DNA of 46,113 nt from Chrysochromulina tobinii (Eukaryota), in the NCBI GenBank assembly GCA_001275005.1, contig JWZX01003247.1:1-46113 (forward strand). Reading direction: 5' to 3'. The first letter of the stretch is position 1. Each line of letters starts with the position of its first letter. The notes under the pieces were generated by a model, which ran no database searches, was not told the origin of the DNA, and worked only from the letters and a program-made list of their open reading frames with translations. Positions 3,532-22,499 of the stretch are shown here, one piece after another. Made by a program: the position numbers and the translations under genes.

Positions 3532-6075
3532 TCACGGCGCGGCAAACATCTTGCCAAACATGGCCTTGTCCCTCCGCGATTGCTCCTTCATCGCCTCCTT
3601 GAGCTCCTCGAGCTCCTTGCGCACCTCGCGGTTCTGTGGGTCCGCCTTGGCGGCAGTGAGCAGATCCGCCTTCGCGCCTTCGAAGTCCAGATTCAAGCGC
3701 TTCGCCTGCGCGCGCCGGTACAGCGCCTTGACGTTCGCCATGTCGAGCTTGAGCGCGTCGTTGCTCGCCTTCTCCGCCATAGCTCCGTCCCCAAGCTTCA
3801 GATGGCACGCGGCGATGTTGAGGAAGCACGAGAGCGTGATGGCTTTCGACTCACTGAGTTTCGTCTCGATTTCTGCGTCCGACAGCACCGCTGCCGACCT
3901 CACCGAACTCGCCTCTGAAGCCTCCGAAGCCGCCGAAGCCGACGAAGTCGCCGCCGCCGCGCCATCCGAAATGTCGACCCCGGCCTTCTCCTGCTCCCCG
4001 GCCTTCTCCTCTCTCTCCTGTTTGAAATCGGAGAATCGGGGCGCCTTGGAGTTGGAATCCGTGTACCTGCGGAGCCATCTCATGCAATCGTGAATACTCA
4101 GAGGCACCCAACGGCACTCGGCGGCACTCAGGGGCACTCAGCGACGGGTGGACGAACTTGTGCAATGCGAATCGATACTCTCCACGCGCGAAGAGCTTGT
4201 TGCCGCGGCTCTTGAAGCGCATCTGCGCAGCGAGACGCTCCTCGCCGTCCATCGACCACGTCTCCTTGGCTCTGACGAAGCTGAGCAGCTCGAGCTCGAT
4301 CACGACGGCGCTCTCCCTTGCCAAAAAAGGACCAGTCGAATCGAAGCTGGGGCTGCCATACGCCCAAGCCGCCGCCGCCGTGAGCTGCACGAGCTCGCCC
4401 GATTTCATATGGCGGACGGCGGCGTCGATGCACGGCAGGACGCCGGCGGCACCGCCCTCGCTCTGCATAAAAGTACGCGGGCGCTCGATGGGCACCTCTT
4501 CGAGGACCTCGCCGTCCGTGCGCCACGACGGCGAGCCGCCGCCCTCGCCTTGGGCGGTCGAGGCAAGGCGGCGCACCGTGTAACGCACGACGCAGATGGA
4601 CTCTTCATTCGGGGTGAGGTGATCGCCCTTCTCCGACTCCCGCAGTATCTTTTTGATCACCAGCCCATCTGTGAACGGCACCTCCTCCACCTTCGTCCAA
4701 CTTTCGAGGCGCACCTTGAGGCACATGAGAGCACCGTCGGCGCCCGCGTCGGTGCCCGCGACGGCGCCCGCACCCGCCGTCTTGGGCAAGGAGACGCGCA
4801 GCTCCGCCGTCTCATACAGCTGCATCAGCGGCAGTAACGTCTCGAGCCGTGCCGCCAGATCCGCGGGAGATGCGCCCGTCACGGCGCCCTCCTTCTCGAC
4901 CAATCTCGTGCCGATCTCGGCCACTTCCACGTTCGACGCGATCGCACCGAGCGTCACCACCAGACCCTCGGCGCTCGATGCGACCGGCGCGCTGGGCGAT
5001 CTGCGCACCTCGAGATCGAGCTTGACCTCGTACCGCGCCCTCGCCCTCTCCCACCCCTGGCCGCGCCTGAGGACCCGCTTGAGCATCGAGCCGTCCTTGG
5101 TGGCTGAGATGTCTTCGACCCCCACCCAATGCAGCAGCTCGACGGTGATGAAGAGCTCCGCGTTCGGAGGTACGCCGAGATCGGGAGCTCCCGCAGCGCC
5201 GTACCCGAGGGCGGGCGCCACCTTGAGCTCGCACACCTGATGAGGGAGGCACTCAGAGGTCATCGGTCATCAGCGTGTAGGAATGGTGCGACCGCGAGAC
5301 ACTCAGTCGCAATCAGTCGCAATCAAGAGGAGCGCGAGACCCTCAGTCGCAATCAGTCGCAATCAGCGGCAATCAAGAGGAGCGCGAGACCACACACCTC
5401 GCCAGTCGTCATGCCGTTGGCGCCCACGACGGCGCTCTGAAAGAAGGTGGGAACGGACGCGTCGCCTGCTGTGAACGTCTGCTCGAAGTCCTTGAGAAAG
5501 GGTTCACCGTCGCGGCTCAGCCGGCCGGTCCACCTGAGCGTGATCTCGGCGCGCGAGCTCGGCCGCTCCCAGCTCGTGCCCTTGACGAGCCTCCACTTGA
5601 CGAGCTGGCCGTTGTGCGACTGGGTGCGCTCGAAGAGGCGGTGCAGCGTCATCTCGTACTCGAGCACGCTCGCCGCCGGCACGCCGCGCGCCGCGTCGCC
5701 CTCGTCGCCGTAGCCCTGTGAAGGCTGCACTGTGAAGTGCGACATCTCGCCCACTTGCATCGTCTTGAGCCCGGCCTCGACACCCGCGGGCAAGCCGGTG
5801 GATCCGACCGTCAGGCGCCTCCTCGTCGCCTCTTCGAAGGGAGTCTCGCTGCCGGCCACGCGCGCCTTGTAATCGACCTCGACGTCCCACTCTTGCTGCG
5901 GATTGTCGTAGTCGGCGCCCGCGGTGAGGAGCGTCTTGGTCACCGAGTGGTCCTTGAGCACGTCAAAGGTCTTGCCGACGTCCGAACTTTCGAGATGGTG
6001 AGCCGCAAAGTTGCTGCCATCGTCGGGGTCCTCCGGGATAAATCCTCCACCGCCCATTCCATCCGCGTCGTCCAG

Positions 6076-6113
<38 letters not shown>

Positions 6114-6216
6114 TGGGCGACTGATCCGCGGCGCCCTTGCGCTCGTCCTCGTCTACCTGGGCCAGGATCGCGCCCGTGTCCACCTTGGAAAATGTGGTAA
6201 GGTTCTTGGTGCTCAT
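3532..6216 (-). CDS. Multi-FKBP-domain peptidyl-prolyl isomerase with C-terminal TPRs (FKBP62/ROF1-like), about 810 aa; exons 6216-5398, 5236-4158, 4066-3532
   Basis: FKBP motifs GLKTMQVGE..GYG..GVPAASVLEYEMTL, GYG..GVPPNAELFITVELL and AVRHMKSGE..AYG; TPR motifs KSRGNKLF, FLNIAACHLKL, NVKALYRRAQA. Two GT-AG introns join three ORFs in frame (2433 nt). Confidence 0.9.
4067..4157 (-). other. GT-AG intron (91 bp, phase 2) in the FKBP gene
   Basis: AA|GTTCG...CCGCAG|GTACACG; contains tgagtgcc repeats; restores ALHK-YTDS in the TPR region. Confidence 0.8.
5237..5397 (-). other. GT-AG intron (161 bp, phase 0) in the FKBP gene
   Basis: GAG|GTGTGTG...CCCTCATCAG|GTGTGCG; filled with tgattgcgac repeats; restores GMTTGE|VCELKV. 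Confidence 0.9.
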
Positions 6217-6577
6217 GGCGATTGAGTCGGCCGATGTCGGGCCGAGAGCACCTGCGAGTTCCTTCCAGACGAGCCCCAAACTCGTGACGTGGCACCGAGA
6301 CGTTTCAGGACGATTCGCTCAATCCGTTCAAAACACAGGGTGGAGCCGGGACACACGCGGGTATTCAAGTTGTAGTGTGTGGGGTGCTTTTGGTATCCGG
6401 CGGCTCGGATACATGATCTGAAAAAATGGCGCATCGTGGCGGGTCGGAGCCGGGAGCGTCCCGCCGTCCCGTCCCAGCATATGCGCGTGCGTCTCAACAT
6501 CAATCTGAATGTCCAGTTCTCCGCTGATAGAATCGTAAATCAGAATTCTCTATTCTGTGCTGTTGAGACCGGAAATC

Positions 6578-8911
6578 TCACGCCGACGTGTCCTCGAGCT
6601 GCTTCTGCCGGTACTCGGACGGCGCGCGAGCCGAGCCGACGCTCGATCGGCGGCCCATGATGAGGTCACGCCTCGCTGTGCTCGCGTCGACACCCGAACT
6701 CATCGAGTCAGCCATCCACCCTAAGATGGATGAGTCACTCACGCCGGGGCTCGGCGCTGGTAGCCGCGAGGGCGTAGGCATCGAGTTAGAGCTCCTCTCA
6801 TTGAGCCGCGTGTTCCTCGACGAGCGCACGAGGGACTCCAACATTGTCAGCATGGTGCTCATCTGCACCCGCATCGCCTTAATCTCGGCCGCGTCGCCGC
6901 CAGCCGGGCCTCCGAAGCCACCGGCAGTGCCCGCGGCTCGAATGACGGCTTTAGGGAATAAGTGCCGTCTGGAGCGAAAGGAGCTATCATCCGCCGCCGG
7001 CGGCGCGCCGGCGCGCCGGGCTTGAGCCGGAACTTGTTCGGCATCGGCCGCTAAGAGCATCAGGTAGAGCGGGTCCTGCTTCGCGAGCAGGTTGCAGTAC
7101 TGGCGCCAGTGGTGCTGGATGCGCAGGACACGGCACAAGATTGGGTCAGAAGGGCCATTCACGCGCAGCAACGAGGCGTAGTAGTCGAGCTGATCCATGA
7201 CGTAGATGTCTCGCATCAACGCACGGCTAATGGTGCGCGCCGACTGCGGGTCGTGTTCCAGCAGGTGGGTCAGATCCTCCTTCGTTATGAGGAAGACTTC
7301 GCAATCCGAAATGGCCATGTGCGTCTTCGCGCGCCGCCGTCCCAGCAGCGTGTCGGTGCCAAGCACCCCCTCGCTCCTCATCTCGATAGTCACGGATCCA
7401 TCCACGATGTCGAGCTTGTACTGAGACGTGGGCGTGATGCGCATCTCGGTGATCGTCTCATCCGCGCGCAGCAGCACACCCGCCTCGCCTTTGGTGAGGA
7501 AGAGCAGGTCGCGCGAGGCATCGCCTTTGTGGAAGATGACTTCGTTGGCCTTAAAGAAACCCGGGCGCAACTTTGAGAAGGCCCGCTGCTGGAAGTCCAA
7601 GCTCATCTTTTTGAACAGCACGAGCTTGCCGACGTTATCCTGCAACACGTGCTTGACCACCTCGGCGTTCAGCGTCGGATTGAGGCCTGACAAAATGTCG
7701 TCCTCGTCCAAGACAGGCTTCTGCTTGTGGTAGTGCTCGTAGTAGCGGCGTACGCGTATCGCGAGGTTCTTTGGAATCGAACGCCACTCGATGTACTCCT
7801 TGAGCGCGTACATCTTCTCCTCCACATGCTTGGTTTGGCTGTCGAGCGACGCGACGGAGGCGCCGATCTGTCCGATGATGTACGAGAAGATGAGCGATGA
7901 AATGATGAGGCTACCCGTCGCGTATGCAATCTCGGTGTTCGAGACGGCGATGATGTCGCCATAACCCACCGTCGTAAGAGTTGTGAGCGCCCAGTAAACG
8001 GAGAGCATGTACTTGTAGCTCACCTCGCGGTCCGCGGCCTCCTCGTCGTAGCGGAGGAGCCACGTCCTGCCGTCCTCGGTTGGGAACCACGTCGTGTAAA
8101 ACCAGCCGCAGCCAAGCAGGTGCGCGCAGTAAAGCAGCTGACAGATCAGCGTCACCAGACGCATGAGGTGCACGTTGATGTGGATTTCACTATCCTCGAG
8201 GCGCGTCCGAATCTCGCTCATCTTGAAGAGCTTTAGGAGCCGGATCAGGCGGAAGAGGCGAAGCATGCGCATTGCCGCCACGTCGGCCGAGGCCTCACCC
8301 ACAACGAGCTCGAGGAGCTCGATGGGGATCGACGATGGCGCGTCAATCCAGAACCAGCCGCTCATGTACTTTTGGGCGATCGGCAGACCACGCGTCTCCC
8401 AGACGGAGTAGTCGATGATGTACGCAGTTCGAAAGGTGAAGATCACGTCGACGATGAAGACAAGGGAGCTGAGCATCTCGAACGTCCACACCCAGCCCTC
8501 CGCATCGACTTGGAAGCCGATGCGCACGGGAACCATGATAGCCGCATACAGGATGAGCATTGCGATCATCATATCCCAACTTTGCTTCCACGGCTCGTAT
8601 GGATAGATGACGCCTATGGAATTCAGGCAGTCGCAGCGGCGGAATTCGGAAGCGCCAACCTCGTCCTCTCCGACGTGTGGCCTCGAACGAGTGCCCGTTG
8701 GCATCATGCGCATGAAAGTCTTCGCGTGCGCGGCTGCCGCGCGCACTGGTGAGCCCGGTTCCCAGCAGCCGGAGCTCACGACTGCAGCCTCCCACAAGTG
8801 ATGCGCCGCCTCTCCCAGATGGTTCCGAAAGAGCTGCAGGTGCTCGCGGGCGCCCCTCGTGGGTATACCATCGAGGTCAGGGTCGTCACTTGTGGTCGGG
8901 TCACTCGGCAT
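6578..8911 (-). CDS. Voltage-gated K+ channel with cyclic-nucleotide-binding homology domain (KCNH/HCN/CNGK-like), intronless
   Basis: S1-S6 hydrophobic segments, S4 MRMLRLFRLIRLLKLFK, pore filter TTLTTVGYGD, C-linker and CNBD (EVIFHKGD..LLFLTKGEA). First ATG at 8911; the ORF track starts at a TTG at 8935. Confidence 0.92.
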   Translation of the reverse strand: MPSDPTTSDDPDLDGIPTRGAREHLQLFRNHLGEAAHHLWEAAVVSSGCWEPGSPVRAAAAHAKTFMRMMPTGTRSRPHVGEDEVGASEFRRCDCLNSIGVIYPYEPWKQSWDMMIAMLILYAAIMVPVRIGFQVDAEGWVWTFEMLSSLVFIVDVIFTFRTAYIIDYSVWETRGLPIAQKYMSGWFWIDAPSSIPIELLELVVGEASADVAAMRMLRLFRLIRLLKLFKMSEIRTRLEDSEIHINVHLMRLVTLICQLLYCAHLLGCGWFYTTWFPTEDGRTWLLRYDEEAADREVSYKYMLSVYWALTTLTTVGYGDIIAVSNTEIAYATGSLIISSLIFSYIIGQIGASVASLDSQTKHVEEKMYALKEYIEWRSIPKNLAIRVRRYYEHYHKQKPVLDEDDILSGLNPTLNAEVVKHVLQDNVGKLVLFKKMSLDFQQRAFSKLRPGFFKANEVIFHKGDASRDLLFLTKGEAGVLLRADETITEMRITPTSQYKLDIVDGSVTIEMRSEGVLGTDTLLGRRRAKTHMAISDCEVFLITKEDLTHLLEHDPQSARTISRALMRDIYVMDQLDYYASLLRVNGPSDPILCRVLRIQHHWRQYCNLLAKQDPLYLMLLAADAEQVPAQARRAGAPPAADDSSFRSRRHLFPKAVIRAAGTAGGFGGPAGGDAAEIKAMRVQMSTMLTMLESLVRSSRNTRLNERSSNSMPTPSRLPAPSPGVSDSSILGWMADSMSSGVDASTARRDLIMGRRSSVGSARAPSEYRQKQLEDTSA

Positions 8912-9198
8912 GGTGAATGTTTCCAGAGCCTCCAAATCCTCCTTGGACGGGACCGGCCATCATTCTAGTTCGCGACGCCCCGCGCCGGCGCGTCTTACTG
9001 CGTATTGCGGGCTTACCCGTGACGATGCACGATCGAAAAACAGGGATCTATGTAGCTCTTCTAAGCTAGGGAAATTACGATCTAATTTGGGATTACATCA
9101 AGTACGAAATGAAAGTGGAAACTCTCGACCGGTCTCGTTTGACTATGGTCTATGCACTATTGTTCTGTGCTTCTCGTCCTCAGGCGTCAACACCTCCG

Positions 9199-12100
9199 TC
9201 AGGACGCCGGCAGCGCAGCGGGCACGCGCACGAGCTCCCGCACGAGCTCGACGAGCTCGCGCTTGAGAAGCGGCACGAGTAGGCCCTCTCGCTCGAGGTG
9301 CATGGGCACGTTGTGATGGAACGTGTCATGCTCAACGACGACGACGGCGCGCCGCCCGCGCACACGCGCCGCCTGGGTCATGTCCTCGAGGTTGCCGCTC
9401 CCAACGTGCACTGCGACGCGGCCGACGCCGGTGCCGTCATTGCCGCTTGTGCCGGTACCGCCATTAGCGGTGCCGCCGCCGCTGGCGTGCTCTCTCGCGT
9501 GCTGCTCGAGCGCGCGGTCGATCGCCTGCGCACACGCATTCTTGGCCGCGTCCGGTACGAAAGAGCCATGCGAACGGCGGAGGTCGACGCGTGGGCCAAA
9601 AGCGAGCACACGCGCCGCCCGGTGCGCGTGCTGCAGCGCAGCGGTGGCGCCCATGGAGGAGCCGAGCATGAGCACACTCTCATACGGCGCTGCGTGCGCG
9701 TCGATGAGGGCGCCGTAGTGGGCGAGGCCCTCCCAGCCGCCGCGCGGGTCCTGCAGGTAGTACGAGTTGGACGGATCCGCCAGATAGAGCACATCGAGCG
9801 GCCCGCCCGCGGCGCGTGCAGCTGCGCACGGAACCTGCCACTGTTGCATGCCCGGCCCCTGCGCCGCGAAGGCGACGAGCAGCACGGGGGCACGATGGCC
9901 GACACACGCGGGCTCAAAGTGGTGGTCGACGAGGGCGAGGCGATCGTTCAACGTGCCTGCAAGCTGTGAAGGGGGCGTGCCGCGATTCCAGCCGAGCCCC
10001 ACGCGCGTGCCAGGCCATTCGAACGCCTCCTTCAAATCGAATTGGTTCGCACCGAGACCGAGGTTGAGAAGGGGCAGGTGGCGCAGCACACGCTCGCGGA
10101 GCTCGGCGAGGTTCGTCAACTCGTTCGCCTGCACGTAGAGGCTCTTGAGCTTCGTCAATTTGCGCAGCGACGTCGGCAGGTCGAGGAGCCGATTGTGGTG
10201 CGCCTCGAGCTTCGTCAATTGCGCGCACTCGCCCAACTCCTCCGGCAATTGACGAAGCTGGTTGCCAAACAGCCAGAGCTCGCGCAATTGACGAAGCTGG
10301 CCGATGGAGCGCGGCAGCTCCGTCAATCGATTGGCCTCAAGGCAGAGCGTCGAGACGTTGGGTAGCGCGGGCAGCAGCTCGGCGACCGACACGATACCGT
10401 TCGAGCCGAGCTGCAGCCGCTTGAGATGGCGCCCCAGGTGCGTCGTCGTGAGCTGCTCGAGCAGTTGCGTCGGCGGCCGCGTCAAAGGCGGCGTCGGCGT
10501 CAGTGTCGGCGCCTGTGGCGGCGTCTGCGTGAGCGGCGATGGCGGATCGTGCAGACGATTGAAGGAGGCCAGCAGGGCGGTCAGCGCACTAGCATGCATC
10601 GGGAGCAGCGGTAGGGAGGTTTGGTCGTTGCCTTCGAGCTCGAGCACAGCGAGATGCGGGGAGGCGAACGCGCCCGTCGTGTCGAGCTCGACACGGCGCG
10701 TTGAGCTCGACACGGCGCCATCGGATGGGAGCTCTCCTTCGTCGCCTCCCTCAGCCGCCCTCGTTCGGCGCTGCTCGTCAGTCTCGTCAGTCTCGTCAAT
10801 CTCGTCAGTCTCGTCAGTCTCGTCAGCCGCCCTCGTTCGGCGCTGTAGGCCCCAGCGCAGGTGCTTGAGCTTCGCGCAGCGCAGGACCACAGGAGGTAGG
10901 GAGGCGAAGGCGTTGTCCTGCAGGCTGAGCACGTGGAGCTGCGGAAGGTCGGCGAGCCAGCACGGGAGCTGTGAAAAGTCATTCGAGCTGAGTAGAAGCT
11001 CGCCCAGCTCGATCAAGTGGCTCAGGTCGTCGGGGAGGGCGCGTAATTGATTCTCGGACGCGTCGAGGACTCGCAGCGCACGCAATCCGCCCAGCGCCTC
11101 GGGGAGCTCGACGAGTGCACGCCGACGCACGGAGAGCGTCGTGAGGGTCGCACTATGCATGCTCCACCAGCCGCGCTCTGTGGGGAGAGGCGAGGGGAGC
11201 GCCGTAGTGGGCAGCTGGGCGCGCGCGAGGGGCTCAACGCCGGTGTGAGGCGTCCCCGCCGTCGTGGGCGCCTCGGGCACATGCCCATCCGCATCTTCGA
11301 ATGCAGTCTCGTCAATCTCGTCAGTCTCGGCCGCCCGCTGCGTCGCGCTCGACACGGCGCTCTCGGTCAGCCCATGAGGCGACCTGAGCGCCGTACCGAG
11401 CGCCGCCTGGTAGCCCGTCAGCGCCGCATCGGCACACGCGAGCGCCGTGGTGGCAGCAGACGCGTCCCCAGCCGCGGCGGCAAAGCGCGCCATCTGCATC
11501 GTCACCAGCGCCGTGTCGAGCAGCTCGCGTGTGGACATCGTACTGAGCGCCGCTTCGCGCAGTGCGTGTCTGTTTGGAAGGCCTTGCGGCACCGCCCCAC
11601 TGCTCCTAATGAGGCAGTCGACCGCTCGGAGAGTGAGAAGCCAATCGCATGCCTCCGCAGCCTCGGCCCACCGCTCCTGCAGACTCCAGACGCCGATCAA
11701 GAGCACGAGCACAGGCGCCGTGGCGGCAGCGGTGGGCAGCTGGGTAAAGGACGCGCCCGGCACAGCGCCCAAGGACGCGCCCGGTACAGCGCCCATGGCA
11801 GAGGAGGCGGGCGGCGGCGGCGCGCCTGGGGTCATGGCGAAGCATGCCGACTGCCTAATTAGGAGTGGCGTGATGCCCAAACGTGCCGCCGCCCGAAGGC
11901 ACAACGCCTCCGCTCGGGACAGCGCGCCCTGACGAAACGCTTCGGTCGCTCTGGGTAGAAGCAACGAAGGCTCCTCCTCTTCCACAGCGCCGTCGCAAGC
12001 GCCCGCATTCACAGCGCCAGCGCCGCCGCTCGTGACGTGGCCCGCATCGTCGTCGGTCCTCGGTGGTTCGTCATCTGCTCGGGACGGCGCGCGTGCCTCG

Positions 12101-15100
12101 GCTCCCGCGCCCGCGGCAGCTCCCGCGCCCGAAGCGGCGCGCTTGAGCAGCAGCAAGAGCGCCGCCGCGAGCGCCGGGACGGTCGTGTGTTCATAGATCA
12201 GGTTGAGAGGGAGTGTGAGGGATGTGCATGCATCGAGCGCCTCGCGCAATCTGGCGGCCGAGATCGACGAGAGGCCCGCGTCGAAGAGGTCGTCCTCCTC
12301 GCTCACCTGATGAGGGACGCAATCAGCATGCACTCAGAGATGCACTCAGAGATGCACTCAGAGGTCGTCCTCCTCGCTCACCTGATGGAGGACGCAATCG
12401 GCATGCACTCAGGAGTCCTCTCACCGCCTCGCCGCTCGCCTCGAGCATGGCGCCGATCACCAACTGTTGACATTCAGCGAAGCTCCAGCCCGGGGAGCGA
12501 GCGCCCACGACGGCGCCACGTCCAGATCTACCCGAGATCGGCGCGCCCGCAGAGGGGAAGGACGGCGTCGCCGCCGCCGCCGTCGACGCCGCCGTCGCCG
12601 CCGCTGCCGCCGCCGCCACTGCTGCCTTCCCCTCCGTCGCCTCCGCCTCCGCCTCCGCCTCCGCCTCCTCTCCCTCCTCTCCCACCTCCGCAGCTGCTGA
12701 GCGCTGTCGTGGGCGTCTCACAGCCGCCTTCCGAGCCTCCGCGCGCCTCGCCGCATCGAATGCATGCGCCTTCCGAGCCTCCGCGCGCCTCGCCGCCTCA
12801 TGCTCCAACGGCTGCTTCACACGCAAGTCCAGTGTGAGCATGGGCGTCCCAGTGCGCAGGCTTGGCAGTTGGAACGCTTCGGCCAGCCCGATCCGTAGCG
12901 GTTTACCGGTCGGTCCACGTGGCAGCGAGGGGAGCATCAGGAGCATCTCGGGCAGCCACCGACGCGAGAGCAGGCCGTTCGAGCCCGCGGCGCGCCGGAT
13001 CCGATGAGAGGGGTCATCAGAGCGGTCATCAGAGAGGTCATCAGAGGTATCATCAGACGTATCATCAGATCCGGGACCATTAGAGATGGAGCGTACCTGG
13101 GCGAGCGTCACCGTCCGCCCCGACTCGCATACGACCGCCACGCCCACCGCCTCGCCCAGCTCCTCGTGCGGCGCGGCGAAGGCGAGCACCTCGCGCACCC
13201 AACCGTACAGCTCGCCCGCGGGCCGTCGCGCCGTGCCGGGCGCCGTGCCGGGCGCCGTGCCGGGCGCCGTGTCGGGCGCCGTGGTGGGCGCCGTACCGAG
13301 CGGCGCGGTGGGCGGCTCGTCGGGCGCCTCGGGCCCGATGCATGCGGCGAGCAGCGCGTGCTCGACCGCGAGCGGCGAGATCTTCTCGCCCGCGCGGTTG
13401 ATGACCTGATGACGGGGGCAATCCGCAATCAGATGACCTGAGTACGTAATCAGCAATCCGCAATCATACGCAATCAGATGAGTGGGGGGGGGGGCACTCA
13501 GAGTGGCTCAGCGACCAGAGCAGCAGCAGCAGCGAGGCACTCAGAGGCAATCCGCTGATGACCTCCTTGAAGCGGCCGGTGAGATGCAGGTGGCCTTCCG
13601 AGTCGAGCCACCCCTTATCTCCTGTCCGGAGCCAGCCGCCCGGATAGAATGCTTCCAAATTTGGGTCGTATCCGAGATGAGCCCGAGGCTCGTAACCACC
13701 AAAGACGCACGCGCCGCGCACGAGGACCTCACCTTCCACTCCCGGAGCGCCTTCCAAATTAAGGAGGCCGGGGCTCCCATCGGAGCTGTACGAGCTCACG
13801 CCCACCTCGGGCCCGGCCGCGGGGCCGACGGAGGCGAGCTTGCGTCGGGTGCGCTCGCGCGGGTTGGCACAGATGGGCAGGGCTTCGGTCATCGCGTAGG
13901 TCGGGAGCACGAGCGCACCTGATGAGGCAGGCAATCAGAGGGACTCAGCGGCCATCCGACGCCATCCGACGCGAAATCCGACGCAATCAGGGGCGCACCG
14001 GGCAGCGCTTCCTCGAGCTGCTCCCCAATGGATGGAGCGAGAGCGGCGGAGCAATTGCGGATAAAGGCGAGTTGGTGAGAGGGAGGCATGCCGGTCGAGG
14101 CACGCACGCTCAGAGCGTAGCGGAGCACCTCCATGTGGATGGTCGGCACGGCGCTGTACCAGGTAGGCGCCGTCGTGGGCGCGCCCAGCAGCGCCTCCGC
14201 CGTGTCCGCTGCCGGCGCTCGGCTCGGCTGTGTCGGCCTTAGGCCAAGGCATGCAAAGAATTGGGCGGCCTCGAATCGGGGCAGGCAGAGCACCGGCGCC
14301 CCGGCCAGCGCCGTGACGAGCACATTGACCATGAGTCCGTGCAGGTGGAAGAGCGGCATCACATTGAGAGCGAGGGTGGTGCGGTCGAGTCGGAGGGTCG
14401 AGCGTACGCAGAGCGCGCCGACCCCCATGGAGGCATGGGTGAGAGGGACCACCTTGGACGGAGGGAGATCGGAGGGAGATCGGAGGACGATGAGGGAGAT
14501 CGGGCGGAGATGAGGGAGATCAGGCGGAGATCGGGCGAAGAGGGAGGTGATCAGAGGGAGATGATCAGAGGGAGGTCAGAGGGAGATTGATCAGATGAGG
14601 GGGGCACCTTTGGACGACGCGTCGTGCCACTCGTGTGCATCACGAGCGCGATCGCCTCACGCCCAGGACGACGCCCCGCAGCCGCAATCGATCCGGAGGC
14701 GGTGCTGGCAGAGGCGCGAACAGCACGCTCGACGGCCGCGGAGGTTGCACACGTCAAGGTGAAGGCTCCGCATAGTCGCAAGTCCGGATGAAGGACCAGT
14801 AACTGCAGCCCCAGCCGCGGCACTGCCACCCTGGCTGCCGCCGAGTGACGGCCCGCTGGCACGATCAGCGCAGCGGCTGGTAGATCCTGAGGGCATCGCG
14901 GAGCGATCAGAAGCGGTCGGAGAGGAGCATCATCAGACGCAATCAGACGCAATCAGAGGGCAGGTGCTGAGGGTGCCGACGTAATCTGAAGCCATCCGAC
15001 GCAATCTGAGTCAATCTCCCACCTCGAGCTCAAAGAGGGTTTCGGCGTCGGAGAGGTCGGGGTTGAGAGGCGCGAGGGGTAGCAGTGAGCTGAGCGCGAG

Positions 15101-16570
15101 AAAGCACGCGGCCAGCTCGGGGGAGGATGGCAATGAAGTCGCCACGCGCTCGTGCGGCAGGAGGTACGCGCTGTGTCTGGCACGCGACGATGCGATGTCG
15201 TCGTCGTCGTCGTCACCCTCCTCACCCGCCCGACACGGCGCCTCCCCATCCCCTCCCCTAAACCACTCGCCCCCTCCAAGCAATTGTTCACCGAGCCGAC
15301 GCGAGAGTTCACGCAGCGCACGGAAGCTCAAGGGCGCACGCGCATCTCCGCACGCCGAGGCGGGACAAAAGGCAGAGCCCTCATCCGACGGCATCAGATC
15401 GAGAAGACGACTAAAGGCGAACTTCTCGGCGGCGGCGGCGGCGCTCAGAGGCGCTGTAGTGGGCGCTGTGGTGGGCGCTGTGGTGGGCGCTGTGGTGGGC
15501 GCTGTGGCGGCGGCGGCGGCGGCGCTCAGAGGCGCTGGCGGCGGCGGCGGCGGCGGCGGCTGCGGCTGTGGCGGCGGCGGCGCTCCTGACTGCAGCGCCG
15601 CTGCCGTCGGCGGCGGCGTCACGACGTCGCTGCCCACCTTGACGCCGCCGCCCACCTCCCAATGGTCTCCCGGGCAGAGCACGCGTCGGATGGTCAATGA
15701 GACTCGTCGACCACGCACGAGACGGCGCCGCGCCGTCTCGGGCGCAACATGCTCGGGGAGCGCCGTCTCGGGCGCCATCTCGGCCACCGCCTCGGGCGCC
15801 ACCTCGTCCGTCGCCTCGGCCAACGCGCCGTCGGCACCCCGACCGCCGAGCCAGAGCGACGCGCTCATGTCATCCTCGGTGGCTCTCGAGACGCTATGGA
15901 GCGCGTGCGCGTACGCGTCGCCCTCGAAGACGAGCAGTCCACGCCGCGGGAGGAGCAGCGAAGCCAACGGCCGTCGGACGATCACGTCCGAGGACGTGTC
16001 CTCTTCGAGGAACTCAAAGGCCGTGTGGGATCCGAGGCTCAGGATGGCCACGCGTGCCGCGTACAGGGGACCGTCCTTGTGCGCGTCGATGCCCTGCCCC
16101 GGCTGGTACTCGTTGAGGAGCACGTGATTGGGCGGCGAGTCCTCGGGGAAGACGCCCGCGCGCACGAGCTGCTCGCACACGCTCTGCACCCACGCCGGCA
16201 GCGGCTCGTGCACCATCGGCATGGCTGGCTGGCCGCCAAACATTTGCAGCCGTCGGCCGCGAAGCGTCGTCCAGCCGTCAGGCGGCGCACTATCGGCACA
16301 GCGAAGCAACTCTGCTTCCTCCTCGCTGCTGACCCACTCGCGCACGTGCGCGACGCCACCGATGCCACAGCGCACCGTGTGCGCTCGAGGGTCAAAGAGC
16401 TGCCGGTCTGGCCGTGCTGGCAGCAGGTAGTGGTGGAGTGGTGCGGCAGCGCCGCTTTGGTGGACTGGCGGCGATACAGGTGCTTCTGCGGCGGCCGGTT
16501 TCGCGCCAGTTGGGGCGGCTGCGGCGCGCGCCTTGGCCTTCTCGGCCTTTAGGAGCGCCGCGAAGTCCAT
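9199..16570 (-). CDS. NRPS-like multidomain protein of about 2200-2240 aa: ALKBH6-like 2OG-Fe(II) oxygenase, AAE3/Pcs60-like adenylation domain, phosphopantetheine carrier domain, helical region, LRRs, alpha/beta-hydrolase; exons 16570-15023, 14886-14608, 14452-13999, 13918-13563, 13405-12425, 12306-9199
   Basis: Oxygenase: NHVLLNEY..HKDGPLY..H..RVSLTIRRV. Adenylation: HTSGTTRRPK, MPLFHLHGL, TWYSAVPTIH, YAMTEA, RTGD, INRAGEKISP, PTGK. Carrier: DLFDAGLSSISA..LIYEHTTV. LRR: LxxLxLxxNxLxxLP. Hydrolase: LGSSMGA. Five GT-AG introns join all pieces in frame (6726 nt). Confidence 0.8.
12307..12424 (-). other. GT-AG intron (118 bp, phase 0) with an internal second AG|GT junction at 12382/12381
   Basis: GCG|GTGAGAGG...CCCTCATCAG|GTGAGCGAGG; restores the carrier domain EASGEA|VSEEDDLFDAGLSS. 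Confidence 0.85.
13406..13562 (-). other. GT-AG intron (157 bp, phase 0)
   Basis: GAG|GTCATCAG...CGTCATCAG|GTCATCAA; restores TGRFKE|VINRAGEKISP. Confidence 0.92.
13919..13998 (-). other. GT-AG intron (80 bp, phase 1)
   Basis: G|GTGCGCCC...GCCTCATCAG|GTGCGCTC; restores EEALPG-ALVLPTYAMTEA. Confidence 0.9.
14453..14607 (-). other. GT-AG intron (155 bp, phase 0) made of gatctccctc repeats
   Basis: CGTCCAAAG|GTGCCC...CGTCCAAG|GTGGTC; restores TSGTTRRPK|VVPLTH. Confidence 0.9.
14887..15022 (-). other. GT-AG intron (136 bp, phase 0)
   Basis: GAG|GTGGG...GCCCTCAG|GATCTA; gattgcgtc repeats; restores LFELE|DLPAAALIV of the adenylation domain. Confidence 0.85.
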
Positions 16571-17994: not shown

Positions 17995-20900
17995 TCAACC
18001 GACAATGAGCGGCGGCAGCGGCGCGATGGGCCGCGGCACCTGCGGCAAGCCGGCGATGAACGAGCAGGGATCGCTCACTTGCGTGGCCGCTGGATCATTC
18101 ATCGTGCAGAGAGGGGACGACGCGACGCTAGGTGCCGCGCCCTTGACCCCGCCGCCGCCACCGCCCTTAAAGCGTCCGGATCGGCGACCGACGGTAGCCG
18201 TTGCCGCCGTTGCCGCCGTTGCCGCCGTTGCCGCCGTTGCCGTTGCCGCCGTGTCCGCCGCCGTCTCCGTCGCCACCGGCGCCGTCCCGGGCGCAATCGC
18301 CACCACGAGCCGTTTCGCCGTCTGCGGGCTGAGGAAGCTCTCTCGCAGCCATCGCACGAGCAGCTGCTGTGACGTGGCGCGCATAGCCTCCGCCTCCTCC
18401 TCGGCGCGTCGAAAGGCGTAGCTCTGCCCGTCGATCTCGGACCAGTAGCGCATGGCCTCGTCCTCGATGCTCTTGTCATCGAGCAGCCGATTATCAATCG
18501 CCGCCTGCTGGTTGGACCGGTACTCCGCGGCGGGCATCTTGGCCAGCGTGGCCACGTACCTGATGAGGGAGCTCATCAGAGCTCATGAGTGGTCATCACA
18601 GGCAATCATCGAAGGCAATCAGTCGTACTCCGCATGGGGTAGGCTTACCCTTCAAGGAACCGATACACACGCGCCTCGATGTCGGCGGGTGCGTGCGTGG
18701 CCGACACGACGGAGATCAAAAAGCCGAGGCAACCGTTGGTATGGCGCACTTCGCCACTCACGCTGTAGCCGAGCTGCTGCTTCGTGCGCAGCGTATCGAA
18801 GAGGGGTGTCCACATGAGATGCTCGAGCAAAGAGAGCTTGGCAGCGAGCGCTCTCGAGTCGGGGCCCAGCTGCCAGTACAGATCGAGGGCGCAGTTCTGG
18901 TCCTCCGGGTTGCGGTTGGGTGCGCGTCGCACGAGCAGCCCGCCCGCAGGCAGCGCTGCACAGCCCTCCCATCTGGGGCTGGGCGTTGGGGGGGGCTCGC
19001 CGAGTGCGCGCCCGACGAGGTCGAACAGGGAGCGCACCTCAGAGCGAGCGAGGTTGCCGCCAGCGTACAGGGTGATGAAGGCGCCCCCGCCCTCGCCAAG
19101 CAAATCCCCGCCGCCCTCGCCCTTCGACGCGCCCTTCGCCCCGCCGAGCTGAGCGCCGACAAATGCGGCGAGCGATTCCGGCGTCACCTCGCCCGCACTG
19201 AGGACCGCAAGCCGGTCGGCCGCAGACACGTGCGTCGGGTCGAGGCAGCGCAGCCGCTCGTTGTACGCCAGCTCCGACGGAGCGAAGCCCGCGTTTCGCA
19301 GCGCGAGCTGATAGTCGTTGAGGACGCGTGCGAGTGTGGGCGCATCGCACGGGCGGCTCGCCACTGCATAGAGCTCGGTGCACACGCGCTCGAGCAGATG
19401 GCCAAGCTTGTGGGAGAAGCCGTCCACCTGCAGTTGCCATCCGAGCTCCGACGGAGAGAGATCGTAAGCGAGCCCCGCAACGGTCGCTGCATACGCGTCG
19501 GTGTTCATGCGCTCGAGGGTCACTTTGGCGGCGACCTCACGCATCACTCGCATGCGCGCCCGAGTCCTCGCCATCTCGGAGAGCTCGGAGGCGGAGAGAG
19601 TGCCCGTGCTGCCGGTGCTGCCGGTGCGGCTGACCGTAGAGGGGCGTGCGGTGTTGATGGAGACGCACACGATCGCCTTTGGCGTCGCAAAGGTCGTATC
19701 GGTCTTGTGGAACGCGAGGCCACGTGTCGACGAGTGCACTAGCTCTGGAGGTGTACGAGCCGGCCGAGCCGCCGCCGCCGCCACCGATGCGACAGCCAGG
19801 GCCGCACCCCGCGTCACCTCAGCGGCCGGCATTGGTCGTTGGGTCTCGCCACCATGGCGCAGTGTAAAGTCGGTCGCGATGTATTCGTTGCGCGGCGGCA
19901 GCTCAAAGGGTGTGGAGAGCGGCTCCGAGGGCCGTCCCTCATACGCTTCCCACCAGCGAGCCAGCTGTGCCGAGTTCACAGGCTTCACTGTGAACTCGGT
20001 CCCGAACCAAGGCTCAAGCTGCCACGTGTCACTCTCGCCCTCGGAGGGCGCACCGACCAGCGCCGATGCCTGCTCTTCGGCGACCCCGCCCTCGGCCTTG
20101 AGGCCCTCGCCTGAATCGCCCTCCGCCTTGTACGAGACGGTGACCACGAGCCTGTCGGGCGTGAGGCCACCGAGGAGCTCTCGCAGCCGCGTCGGCTCCC
20201 AATTGGGGCTGTACAGAGCCTCGGCGGAGAGGGTCTCATCGGGTGGCAGCCGCCGAAGCAGCGAGATTGCGAGCCGGCGCACCGCGTCGATCTCCCTCTC
20301 TTGCTCCGCGTACGCGAAGCGCATCTGCGCAATGTCGCGCAGCTCGTCATACACTCCTTGTAGCCGTTCGGTCGGCTCGCGTGACAGGTGGCCGACGGCG
20401 CCGAGGACGAGGTCGAGCACACGGTCGACGCGATCGAGCCCACGGGAAGTGAGCTCCACCTCGAGATCGAAGAGCGCGGCATTGCTCGTGTGCATCTCCT
20501 CATCGACCCCCGCCGCCAGCCCCGTCGCCAACCCTTCCAGCTTGAGCGCCTCCAGGGCCGAGCCTTTGCCCTCGTGCCCAAGCAGATGGCCGACCAGCAC
20601 CTCCGGCTTGGTGCCGTACGCGTTGAGCAAACTCGGAACGAACCAGTTGAGTTTGAGGGTACGCCCCTCGCGAAGTGGGACTGAGCGCACCCAGAGCGGT
20701 GGCTTCCAGCCGGCTACCGCCGCCGCCGCCGCCGCCGCACCCCCGCTCGCATCGCCTCCTCCGCGCTCGCCACCTTCGCGCTCGCCACCTTCGCGCTCGC
20801 GTGCACCGCGCTCGCCAGCTCCGTCGTCGCCCAATCCTCCCAATGGAAGCGGCGCGCGCGCAAACGACGGGCGGGCTACCGGCTGCGAGGGTAGCCGCGC

Positions 20901-21848
20901 ACCCATCTCCTCGACCCAGCCCTGGAGAGTGTCGAGGTCTTCCCCGCCCAGAGCCACCAAGCCCATCAGGCCCGCATGGTAGTAGCGGCTGTGGAACGCT
21001 CGGAGCGCCGACTGCATGTCGACGCCGCGCGCCGCCGGCCCGATCTCGAGCGATCGACGATCGCCCCACATGAACCGGCGGTACGGGTGGGCAGGCGCGC
21101 ATAGGTGCCCAAGCAGCTGCGCGTGCCGATTTCCCTCCTCCTGACGTGCCTGCTGGAACTCGCTCTCGATGGCCTTCACCTCACGCGCGGCAGAGCCTAC
21201 GTTGAACGAGGGCGTGGCCATAAAGTCGAGGAAGCGGTCGAGTGCCGGCTTGAGCTGCGAGGGGCTCACATCAAAGTACACCACCGTGTGCTCCGCCGAG
21301 GTCTCCCCATTGTCCTCGCCGCCGTGCGCCGAGAGGAAGCGGTTCCACTCGTCTTCGTCCGGATAGCGCTCGGAACCCATGAAAACCATGTGCTCGCAAA
21401 AGTGGGCGAGGCCGTCGAGGTCGGGCGGGTCGGACATGCCGCCCACGCCCACCGCGAGCGCGACCGCCGCCTTGCTGCCCGCACTTGCGCCGGCTTCGTC
21501 GTCCTCGTCCTCACCTTCCTCCTCGTCTTCCTCATCATCTTCGTCCTCATCATCCTCGTCCTCGTCCTCTCCATCACCCTCGTGATTCTTTTCATCCTCT
21601 CCATCGTCGTCCTTGTCGGTGGGCACGGCCACGGCGTCCGGATCGGAGATGAGCAGCGCGCGCAGCCCATTGGGCAGCTCAATGAGCCGATATAATCTTT
21701 TGTCGTTGACCGGCTTGGCGAGACGGTCGCTCAGCGTCATCGACGCCGTGCGCTGCCCGAGGCGTGCACGTTTAATTGGGGGCATGGAGAAAGTGTCCAC
21801 AGCGGTGAGGAGGGAGACGGCGTAGAAAGCGGCGAAGCCCAAGCGCAT
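17995..21848 (-). CDS. M16A zinc metallopeptidase, nardilysin/insulysin-like, about 1254 aa; exons 21848-18649, 18559-17995
   Basis: DKRLYRLIELPNGLRALLISD, long acidic tract, GLAHFCEHMVFMGS (HxxEH), LLGHEGKGS, FDTLRTKQQLGY; one intron joins the frames (3765 nt). Confidence 0.92.
18560..18648 (-). other. GT-AG intron (89 bp, phase 2) in the M16A gene
   Basis: GG|GTAAGC...CCCTCATCAG|GTACGT; tgattgcc repeats; restores RFLEG-YVATL. Confidence 0.9.
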
Positions 21849-22499
21849 CCGTCGGCGACGTCGGCTTTAGGTCGCGCGCTGTCCCGGTGGTTGCACAAGC
21901 GCATGCATATATGGTGATGGGGGGAAGGGGGGGGGACGGGGGTGAGGTGCGGTAAGGATAATGACTGACCCGCCGTGAACAGATGCTGCGTGATTTTTCA
22001 TCTCTAGATGCGCCCCTTCCCGAGCGTACAGTCTACAGAACTACAAGCGATGGGGCGACCGCACACGCGGCAGCGCTCGCCTTGCGCTCGCCGCCGCAAG
22101 CCGCGGCGCGAACTCCGCGTCGAGCATCGTGAGGCGCTCGCCGCACAGCTCAAAGAGCGCCGCCACCGCGCCCGCTACGAGTGCGCCGCACGCGCGCACG
22201 GCCTTTTCGAGCGCCGACTGAGCCAGCTCCAGCTGCGACTGCTCCGGAGCGCCGCCTCGCTCACGGGCGCCGCGGCTCCGAGAACCCGAATTCGTCGCGA
22301 GTGCCACCCGGCAGGTGCCCATCTGGGAGTGGCAGCCCCAAGGCGGCGGCCATGACCGGGCCAAAGGACTCACGCCCAAAGATGCGCTCGCCACGATGTG
22401 GCCGTCGGGCTGCAGACCGTACACCGTGTACCCCCTCGCGCCCGCTGCAGCCCATGGCGTTGGGCCGGTGGAAGCAGGAAGGCCAGAGGCTCTTTGGCC

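Follow-up and report, generated by a model that had tools for sequence, protein, structure and literature searches.

The window analysed here, that is, the whole 46,113-nt stretch of Chrysochromulina tobinii contig JWZX01003247.1, carries on its minus strand (16570-9199) a gene for which a seven-exon model of 6,630 nt with a single terminal stop predicts a protein of 2,209 aa. From the N- to the C-terminus, this protein comprises an ALKBH6-like oxygenase, an AAE3-type adenylation (A) domain, a carrier (T) domain, a TPR-like helical domain, leucine-rich repeats (LRRs) and an alpha/beta hydrolase; inspection by eye revealed no recognisable biosynthetic genes neighbouring it. Exon 1 (15023..16570, minus strand, as for all features below) encodes aa 1-516, carrying in one frame the oxygenase, a Pro/Ala/Thr linker and the N-terminal part of the A domain, and is followed by exons 2 (14608..14886), 3 (13999..14452), 4 (13563..13918) and 5 (13097..13405). 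Exon 6 (12425..13000) holds the end of the A domain, a charged helix plus linker and the first helix of the carrier, and the 3,108-nt exon 7 (9199..12306), parts of which are covered by RNA contigs, encodes the carrier, TPR-like domain, LRRs, hydrolase and stop codon. A preliminary description had held the fusions to be free of splice guesses, which stands for oxygenase and A domain within exon 1 and for carrier, LRRs and hydrolase within exon 7; on the contrary, the link from the A domain to the carrier does rest on splicing, at introns 5 and 6.

Splicing of introns 1-3 is confirmed by RNA, the joint of intron 1 being present in runs X14 and X17, that of intron 2 in X14 and that of intron 3 in X16, with the introns on both sides of exon 2 spliced within one X14 contig. 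Introns 4 and 5 showed no spliced joint in the four RNA runs, while all six exon junctions agree gap-free with the sequences of relatives, that of exon 4 with the intron-free relative P0008. Intron 5 ends in CGG instead of AG, and its retention would be harmless because its 96 nt are in frame and stop-free. Intron 6 (12307..12424, 118 nt) consists of a 43-nt and a 75-nt GT-AG unit in tandem, and in 3/4 runs the RNA has only the distal 75-nt unit removed, with the 43 nt retained, leading to a predicted stop at aa 1227. No single full-length mRNA was found among the RNA data, and none of the RNA contigs listed bridges the ALKBH6 and A domains, or A and T.

It might then be thought that the locus mainly yields a truncated ALKBH6-A protein, or separate transcripts, with the full chain rare or not made. 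The 75-nt-only joints of intron 6, the missing RNA joints of introns 4 and 5, the absence of an AG end in the latter, and an RNA depth of 0-1.6 between oxygenase and A domain would all fit such products. Nonetheless, the libraries contain unspliced sequence elsewhere, with contigs reading through introns 3 and 4, and therefore the part-spliced RNA may be precursor; the same junctions are encoded intron-free in relatives; and exon 7 is open over 1,035 codons, with 89% identity to relative P0002 in the queried part. In addition, the linker contains no Met between aa 266 and 392, and therefore the whole A domain is readable only from the oxygenase frame. Truncated or separate main products are considered very improbable, and the one-chain fusion is confirmed as real and conserved.

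The A-T-TPR-LRR-hydrolase core was also found in further protists from the sea and from fresh water, Picozoa, Emiliania and Prorocentrum among them, and literature searches found no published description of this architecture, in agreement with its initial presentation as an uncharacterised one. Among 25 relatives scanned, the carrier was detected in 22, and A, T and LRR occurred in one called chain in 14, 11 of which also present the hydrolase nucleophile. The LRR-hydrolase part matches distant relatives at 46-62%, the three most divergent being left out. The front ends seen are an AAE3-type A domain alone, A with PhyH, A with ALKBH6 (one clade), and a fatty-acyl-AMP ligase (FAAL) with a ketoreductase (KR). 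PhyH appears in 7/25 relatives, N-terminal in 6/25 and as an unrelated C-terminal domain in 1/25 (P0007), and KR in 4/25, while L007-L009 and L011 are complete relatives free of oxygenase. Three separate 2OG-oxygenase fusions are thereby found, namely N-terminal PhyH, C-terminal PhyH and ALKBH6. On the LRR-hydrolase tree, whose deeper forks are not all starred, the FAAL-KR proteins P0012 and P0014 are placed among AAE3-type proteins, so that one back end appears to accept different loaders.

The oxygenase (15677..16378) is recognised as Pfam 2OG-FeII_Oxy_2 (E 1.9e-11), its best PDB match being human ALKBH6 (E 1.5e-34), followed by ALKBH8 (9.4e-10). The HxD..H metal ligands and the N, Y, R and S ligands of 2OG are all kept, with N153, Y155, H164, D166, H225, R289 and S291 corresponding to N103, Y105, H114, D116, H182, R218 and S220 in the numbering given for the human protein in PMC8892091. 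Among 42 ALKBH6 relatives found, 5 are fused to an A domain, and the called chain lacks A-domain sequence in the other 37. Six fused domains form one clade (support 100/99) inside the haptophyte-type ALKBH6 proteins that stand alone, an N-terminal motif being common to both, and the fusion is kept in three lineages that lie 0.26-0.38 changes per site apart in the ALKBH6 domain.

This nesting, together with the low-complexity and weakly conserved linker after the oxygenase (12-60/80 identities) and with relatives that work without an oxygenase, would suit an ALKBH6 that is just a passenger, namely an ordinary gene that fused once and whose product still performs its customary nucleic-acid-related function, independently of the acyl chemistry. 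On the contrary, maintenance of the fusion across the three lineages, the PhyH oxygenase that the sister group of the ALKBH6 fusions has in the same N-terminal slot, and the third oxygenase at the C-terminus of P0007 suggest selection for oxygenase chemistry, even though 2OG oxygenases are common in such genomes. A passenger ALKBH6 is taken as a serious possibility, somewhat short of an even chance, and is compatible with the self-loading acyltransferase proposed below. Oxidation as an obligatory step, as initially envisaged, is in any case doubtful for ALKBH6, because complete relatives either lack the oxygenase or have PhyH or ketoreductase instead.

The A domain (12859..15424, aa about 383-1030, exons 1-6) matches Pfam AMP-binding in exons 2-4, and the core motifs are intact, the catalytic and A-domain motifs quoted in the preliminary description being all present. 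Judged from sequence, it is nearest to the AAE3/Pcs60 group, as had been proposed, the closest PDB matches of the A domain of relative P0008 being oxalate-CoA ligases (E 2e-60 to 5e-51). It keeps the P-loop TSGTT, C743-S744 and K1015, and the residues at AAE3 positions His214, His216, Cys288-Ser289, Ala313-Met314 and Lys500, with Ser289 and Lys500 of the AAE3 oxalate pocket present as S744 and K1015. A Leu is found at AAE3 Val215 and Pro775 at AAE3 His319, and oxalate as the substrate is doubtful because this His is replaced by Pro in 13/13 family A domains with the motif. A C2-C3 acid with a single carboxylate is the probable substrate, with glyoxylate, glycolate, pyruvate and acrylate as candidates; it need not be oxalate.

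The carrier (12157..12472) spans intron 6 and matches Pfam PP-binding with E 1.5e-7 and 32 bits (cut-off 20.8). Its predicted phosphopantetheine-bearing Ser1188 (codon at 12267) is invariant in 23/23 aligned sequences, within a motif that reads GLSS in the algal protein and GLDS or GVDS in P0024 and P0027. With both A domain and carrier showing intact motifs, the NRPS-like single chain originally described is supported. Between carrier and LRRs, a structure model reveals a TPR-like helical domain (11383..11982) of about three repeats with low-complexity inserts, which was absent from the preliminary description. Its best match is the TPR of kinesin light chain 2 (rmsd 3.4, 124 residues aligned) with a Z of 13.2, a level that helical repeats can reach through arrangement alone; most top rows are TPR, and TPR clusters score 0.91-0.92 in the Atlas, while no Pfam TPR match was obtained and Foldseek was not significant. 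The LRRs (10026..11145; Pfam LRR_8, E 1.4e-17) form two blocks separated by an acidic insert, with about 11 repeats by pattern. TPR-like domain and LRRs thus place about 700 residues between carrier and hydrolase, an order kept in relatives.

LRRs often act as receptors, and those found here are similar to SHOC2 and to bacterial-type repeats, features that would agree with a sensor-gated enzyme in which a foreign or stress ligand, once recognised by the LRRs, would trigger acyl activation and release and so the production of a signal or defence compound. Nonetheless, the Pfam scan found neither a nucleotide-binding switch nor any other immune domain, and the LRR-hydrolase part is strongly conserved, unlike diversifying receptors. 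Such gating is regarded as improbable, and the sensor, signalling and defence roles first suggested gain no direct support.

The terminal domain (9229..9951) shows the motif GSSMG and a predicted triad S2058-D2149-H2172, assigned from position in the model and from invariance, each residue being conserved in 21/21 aligned sequences. This hydrolase has no Pfam or NCBIfam match, including no thioesterase family, yet it models as an alpha/beta hydrolase fold (pLDDT 81, pTM 0.82). In the Atlas, an Asp2 cluster ranks third (0.94, 194/256 features), and the fold search places the capsule O-acetyltransferase CsaC (6yuo) fourth among 48,161 chains (Z 15.3, rmsd 3.0), level with esterases; lipases and esterases equal or outrank it (top Z 15.8), and thioesterase folds rank lower by a small gap (DcsB Z 14.0, Pks13-TE Z 13.9). 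A direct profile search of the PDB with the family hydrolase gave 0 matches. The family profile does align (hhalign 97%, E 1.1e-10) with a bacterial group, selected by its shared GSSMG pattern, whose best non-repeat PDB matches are CsaC (6.3e-5), an XcbB/CpsF capsule protein (8.1e-5) and, more weakly, Gap2 (0.033), and a polysaccharide flippase lies nearby in 3/3 examined loci of this group. A conserved Phe and Tyr precede the nucleophile Ser by 71 and 35 residues, compared with 74 and 35 in CsaC. For the CsaC triad extension H201-Q138-Y79, compared by spacing, Tyr/Phe/Trp is kept, and the Q138/H201 positions hold Gln/His in P0024 and Arg/Gln in the algal protein. Weak and indirect as these indications are, they incline towards glycan O-acyltransferases of the CsaC/Asp2 kind more than towards NRPS thioesterases.

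These observations also bear on whether the protein is a small-molecule NRPS-like A-T-TE synthetase, in which the hydrolase would be a release or condensing thioesterase giving an ester, a lactone or a free modified acid, the oxygenase or ketoreductase would tailor, and TPR and LRR would only scaffold or localise. The level ranking of esterases with CsaC agrees with it, as do the optional KR and PhyH domains, both typical of tailoring. Some PhyH-type enzymes are known to act on substrates bound to a carrier. A-T-TE genes are also reported as widespread in algae, each haptophyte genome having 5 to 8 of them (PMC7073580), and T-TPR scaffolds are described in dinoflagellates (PMC8283056). On the contrary, the long TPR and LRR segment in conserved order, the slightly lower rank of thioesterase folds and the sequence links of the hydrolase to glycan O-acyltransferases speak against such a synthetase, which is judged unlikely, although to be taken seriously.

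We give about an even chance to the protein being an acyltransferase that loads itself and then transfers a small acyl group to a macromolecule bound by its TPR and LRR repeats. By established A-T chemistry, a small carboxylic acid would be activated by the A domain at the expense of ATP and loaded as a thioester on phosphopantetheinyl-Ser1188. Resemblance to CsaC/Asp2 suggests that an acyl-Ser2058 intermediate would then form and be resolved by an acceptor hydroxyl instead of water. From the anatomy of the chain, this hydroxyl may belong to a glycan or protein chosen, and likely held, by TPR and LRR. The acyl group would be set by the front end, as in the sister subfamily with fatty-acyl-AMP ligase and ketoreductase. 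The 2OG oxygenase may be an optional accessory oxidising the tethered acyl group, the acceptor or a precursor, the weakest step in the case of ALKBH6. Hence, of the earlier idea that a small carboxylate is loaded and then transferred to a target, the transfer is favoured by the presence of a TPR-like domain and by the weak lean of the hydrolase towards CsaC/Asp2, while oxalate as the acid does not hold well. More tentatively, and with chances clearly below even, the family may constitute a protist-wide one-chain writer of a novel macromolecular modification, with target choice by TPR/LRR, a delivery domain drawn from bacterial capsule O-acetyltransferases, swapped loaders (small or fatty acid) and redox domains, a 2OG oxygenase recruited three times, and, in the lineage studied here, ALKBH6 acting on a carrier-bound or a protein or glycan substrate.

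Thiotemplate enzymes normally make small molecules, and the combination of target-binding repeats with a glycan-acyltransferase-like end would, if true, represent a new eukaryotic route to CoA-free acylation of macromolecules. The family covers haptophytes, Picozoa and dinoflagellates, abundant plankton with many A-domain genes lacking an assigned function, and its natural variants (no oxygenase, PhyH, ALKBH6, FAAL-KR) provide a ready comparative series, with intron-free members that are easily expressed. For ALKBH6, whose activity is not settled, the fusion gives a testable clue to the substrate; should the writer reading be true, it would be the first handle on the chemistry of this enzyme.

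Among known systems, Dlt D-alanylation (DltA, DltC, DltB/D) follows the logic proposed here, in that a small acyl group is activated with ATP, loaded on a carrier and passed to a hydroxyl of a polymer; it does so through separate bacterial proteins with a membrane acyltransferase, the algal version being one soluble chain with repeat domains. The nearest solved relatives of the A domain are Arabidopsis AAE3 (5IE0/5IE2/5IE3), LsOCS (6QJZ) and Pcs60 (8AFF), which are stand-alone, whereas the algal domain shares one chain with its carrier and differs at Val215 and at His319, one of two proposed oxalate-specificity residues. Human ALKBH6 (7VJS/7VJV), the nearest solved relative of the oxygenase, is presented in PMC8892091 as binding nucleic acids, with no known substrate; the sequence match is clear and the ligands are kept, but the algal domain sits fused ahead of an A domain. 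NRPS-like A-T-TE proteins, as described for the 'Other(A)' genes of algae (PMC7073580) and the fungal A-T-TE synthetases, share the A domain, the carrier with conserved Ser and a C-terminal alpha/beta hydrolase, in the same order and without condensation domain. On the contrary, the algal chain has an A domain of the oxalate-CoA ligase group, an N-terminal 2OG oxygenase, and TPR-like and LRR domains in place of a thioesterase directly after the carrier, its hydrolase not being recognised as a thioesterase. The dinoflagellate thiolation-TPR scaffold proteins outlined in PMC8283056 also have a carrier followed by TPR-like repeats, to which the algal chain adds A, LRR and hydrolase; leucine or LRRs are not mentioned in the main text of either survey. 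Finally, CsaC (SacC) of Neisseria meningitidis serogroup A (6YUO) and Asp2/Gap2 of the accessory Sec system share with the hydrolase the alpha/beta fold and the Ser-Asp-His triad, and CsaC also a similar spacing of the oxyanion Phe and Tyr and, as donor, a thioester from which acetyl is taken through an acyl-Ser (PMC7501274). CsaC differs in its Q138/H201 extension, in a structural identity of about 12% with no direct sequence match, and in that the algal donor would be an acyl-carrier in cis, within a eukaryotic multidomain chain.

The 2,209-residue chain is encoded on the reverse strand by a seven-exon gene running from 16570 to 9199, whose 6,630 coding bases, as deduced by open-frame reading, contain a single stop, the terminal one. 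Scanned with Pfam one exon at a time, exon 1 yielded a 2OG-FeII_Oxy_2 domain, exons 2-4 yielded pieces of AMP-binding, and exon 7 yielded PP-binding together with LRR families. Five introns exhibit GT-AG ends, while intron 5 (13001-13096, reverse strand, 96 nt) ends in CGG in place of CAG; it is in frame and stop-free, the frame stays open upon its retention, and it may be either a retained intron or a mutated allele.

Four of the six RNA runs containing this stretch were compared with the gene model. The spliced joint of intron 1 was found in two of them and those of introns 2 and 3 in one each, with a single contig running from exon 3 through exon 2 into the end of exon 1, and spliced joints of introns 4 and 5 were absent from all four. 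In three of these runs the distal 75 nt of intron 6 are alone missing, and the 43 nt left would end the protein at residue 1227. Since introns 3 and 4 also appear unspliced in these libraries, such RNA may be a precursor; alternatively, the genome may have an allele that lacks the 75-nt duplication. None of the RNA pieces listed bridges the oxygenase and the adenylation (A) domain, depth in that bin being 0-1.6, so that the single full-length mRNA is a prediction. Nevertheless, continuity of the junctions across this RNA gap is supported by homologous chains, because all six splice points align gap-free to one protein, that of Picozoa sp. COSAG06 (P0008); the same holds for five of the splice points with P0099 or P0003, called proteins of relatives. 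That the full chain is rarely made in this organism is regarded as improbable, and the multidomain fusion observed in the preliminary description is confirmed by the open frame, the domains found and the junctions matching relatives. Intron-like words near 11860 and 11611, considered as extra introns in exon 7, were rejected, the frame being open and no RNA joint occurring there; one RNA contig covers 11310-12027 of this exon without gaps.

Intron 6 (12307-12424, reverse strand) consists of two tandem GT-AG units of 43 and 75 nt, the second opening on a repeat of the ~22 bases that begin exon 7, and looks as if born by tandem duplication or removed in two steps. RNA contigs of other loci stack on its motif to a depth of 112-131, compared with 1-18 in most bins, suggesting a genome-wide intron family. 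The introns at 13406-13562, 13919-13998, 14453-14607 and 14887-15022 (reverse strand) are packed with short CTGATTGC-like repeats; several of them open with bases repeating the start of the next exon, and intron 4 displays three AG/GTCATC sites. At 12898, RNA contigs from three of the four runs carry a G>A change, reflecting another allele or strain.

The oxygenase has human ALKBH6 as its best solved relative (E 1.5e-34), followed by ALKBH8 (9.4e-10), and every residue that PMC8892091 names as a metal or 2OG ligand is in place. Its nearest named ALKBH6 is that of Prymnesium parvum, so that the source, a eukaryote, is probably a haptophyte. A search of this region against long proteins matched none of 5,404 candidates, a result misleading for fusions because the genes of relatives are called in pieces at introns. 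On the contrary, a near-length search with exon 1 produced 42 matches among 7,993 candidates, five of which continue into A-domain sequence (91, 91, 81, 45 and 50% identity). P0062 and P0099 comprise ALKBH6 and the A domain up to the intron 4 site, and P0114 and P0003 the remainder; as the contigs of the paired pieces are equal in size (19,929 and 18,078), they suggest that a distant relative encodes this full chain as well. A tree was built from 38 ALKBH6 domains, omitting P0095-P0098 and the short P0093 and with P0099 standing for P0062. All six fused rows fall into a single clade (100/99) free of unfused rows, the latter being called ORFs of which some may be cut. Their core is conserved (118-165 identities of 165) and their linker is variable (12-60 of 80). 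Clade and core together indicate a single origin of the fusion, from an ordinary ALKBH6, followed by its retention. The oxygenase might be a passenger uncoupled from the acyl chemistry, a reading towards which we are somewhat less than evenly inclined; against it stand the PhyH oxygenase that the sister group holds in the identical N-terminal slot and the fusion of a third oxygenase at another place in the family.

When the last 433 residues were searched against longer proteins, 56 matches were obtained among 7,984 candidates. The best 27 of them match LRR and hydrolase, and two are pieces of the window gene itself, leaving 25 relatives, of which 22 carry PP-binding and 14 show A, carrier (T) and LRR within one called chain; the hydrolase nucleophile is also present in 11 of these 14, the other three appearing cut short. 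Apart from the Picozoa protein, named relatives belong to Prorocentrum cordatum (P0025, P0027), and an Emiliania huxleyi fragment falls in the cluster of P0014. Automatic database labels of relatives include 'acyl-CoA synthetase/LRR protein'. Metagenome loci L007-L009 and L011 encode an intron-free, oxygenase-free form of ~1,560 codons; that of L009 (6047-10768) lies on a eukaryote-like contig with C2H2 zinc-finger and aldo-keto reductase-like neighbours, as judged by eye.

Front ends are either an AAE3-type A domain alone, the same domain preceded by PhyH (6 of the 25 relatives), or a fatty-acyl-AMP-ligase (FAAL) type A domain plus ketoreductase (KR), the KR occurring in 4 of the 25. The A domain of P0012 is of the FAAL type, and FAAL-KR precedes the same T-TPR-LRR-hydrolase part in P0012, P0014, P0024, P0027 and locus L004; the core A-domain motifs searched are absent from P0024 and P0027. 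The front part of this subfamily may resemble the loading part of BurA. P0007 carries an unrelated PhyH after the hydrolase. This second kind, C-terminal to the hydrolase, is also seen in P0203, while the close relative P0004 stops at the hydrolase; N- and C-terminal PhyH domains share no detectable similarity (E 0.28). In a 25-row tree computed from the LRR-hydrolase part and excluding P0026, the window protein clusters with P0002 and P0003 (100/99), a group nested in a 12-row set (97/94) containing the N-terminal PhyH proteins, and P0012 and P0014 lie near oxygenase-free AAE3-type proteins (88/99, fork not starred). As front ends vary among relatives and across the tree, the constant part of the family is T-TPR-LRR-hydrolase.

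Assignment of the A domain to the AAE3/Pcs60 group was upheld, the best solved relatives of the P0008 domain being the oxalate-CoA ligases 5IE0, 6QJZ and 8AFF. Among the pocket residues listed in PMC8905533, where Ser289 and His319 are named as specificity residues, the Ser, Cys, Ala-Met, His216 and Lys positions are retained in the window protein. However, His319 is replaced by Pro in all 13 family members having the motif, and Val215 by Leu in all 12 covering the position. Judged from these residues, the second carboxylate anchor of the AAE3 pocket is lost in the family, which strictly falls outside AAE3, and the acid activated is likely small. Oxalate, considered as the substrate, becomes doubtful.

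Downstream of the carrier, the predicted model shows stacked helical hairpins. A wide fold search with this region placed the TPR of kinesin light chain 2 first (Z 13.2, rmsd 3.4, 124 aligned), TPR proteins occupying most rows; the Atlas likewise pointed to TPR clusters, and Foldseek, queried with the model of carrier plus TPR, retrieved nothing at E up to 0.001. On this modelled fold we call the region TPR-like. It is followed by ~11 LRRs in two blocks.

The carrier is detected by Pfam as PP-binding, while the C-terminal domain matches no Pfam or NCBIfam family and is recognized as an alpha/beta hydrolase from its model (pLDDT 81.4, pTM 0.82). Its predicted triad, Ser2058, Asp2149 and His2172, is shared without exception by the 21 sequences aligned. 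Esterases obtain nearly level fold scores, with CsaC, the capsule O-acetyltransferase of Neisseria meningitidis serogroup A, ranking fourth and tied with the top (Z 15.3, rmsd 3.0, 191 aligned). Asp2 is not among the best 50 rows, an absence compatible with Asp2 likeness; in the Atlas, unnamed bacterial clusters lead and an Asp2 cluster is third (0.94, 194 of 256). A hydrolase-only profile (8 sequences) retrieved no PDB chain at E up to 10, and none of the 92 loci that matched the pattern in prokaryote genomes was confirmed.

The family profile does match a group of weak bacterial matches (97%, E 1.1e-10), whose own profile finds CsaC, an XcbB/CpsF capsule protein and Gap2, with sub-threshold Asp2 matches in three of its five proteins; the chain to CsaC through this group is indirect, because the group was selected by shared motif. 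TAL-effector and antibody rows of that search were set aside as sums of non-significant repeat matches. These unnamed bacterial hydrolases (L025-L031, e.g., L029 9662-10579 and L031 9809-10732), related to CsaC, adjoin polysaccharide flippase, glycosyltransferase and nucleotide-sugar genes, the flippase being nearby in three of three loci examined, and are likely undescribed surface-glycan O-acyltransferases. In the family hydrolase, the conserved Phe and Tyr are spaced as in CsaC. Judged by spacing, the Gln and His of CsaC recur in P0024 and are replaced by Arg and Gln in the window protein. As reported, CsaC transfers acetyl from acetyl-CoA to sugar via an acyl-Ser (PMC7501274), and Asp2 O-acetylates GlcNAc of a glycoprotein (PMC5578698).

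Altogether, a self-loading acyltransferase is the likeliest reading of the chain, at even odds. The A domain would activate a small acid and load it onto the phosphopantetheine of Ser1188, steps that follow from established A-T chemistry; the terminal domain would then use Ser2058 to move the acyl group onto a glycan or protein hydroxyl, the acceptor being bound by the TPR and LRR, with acyl transfer and target selection being the inferred steps. That these repeats belong to a sensor-gated enzyme seems improbable. A small-molecule A-T-TE synthetase is unlikely, although A-T-TE genes are common in algae, as stated in PMC7073580. Judged by eye, neighbouring genes in the window, all on the reverse strand, resemble those for an FKBP-type protein (3854-6318), a cyclic-nucleotide-gated channel (6578-8959), an insulinase-type peptidase (18648-21866) and a DNA helicase (40775-44461); none of these four suggests a biosynthetic cluster.

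No description of this architecture was found in the literature searched, although genes of this kind may be listed in supplementary tables of antiSMASH results or domains. T-TPR proteins occur in dinoflagellates (PMC8283056), and 'leucine' or 'LRR' is absent from the available texts of that report and of PMC7073580, as well as from that of the Chrysochromulina tobin genome paper (PMC4580454). The enzyme interpretation stands as regards the NRPS-like loader and weakens as regards oxalate: the window chain would work like NRPS-like enzymes in its loading part, and it falls outside the strict A-T-TE enzymes.
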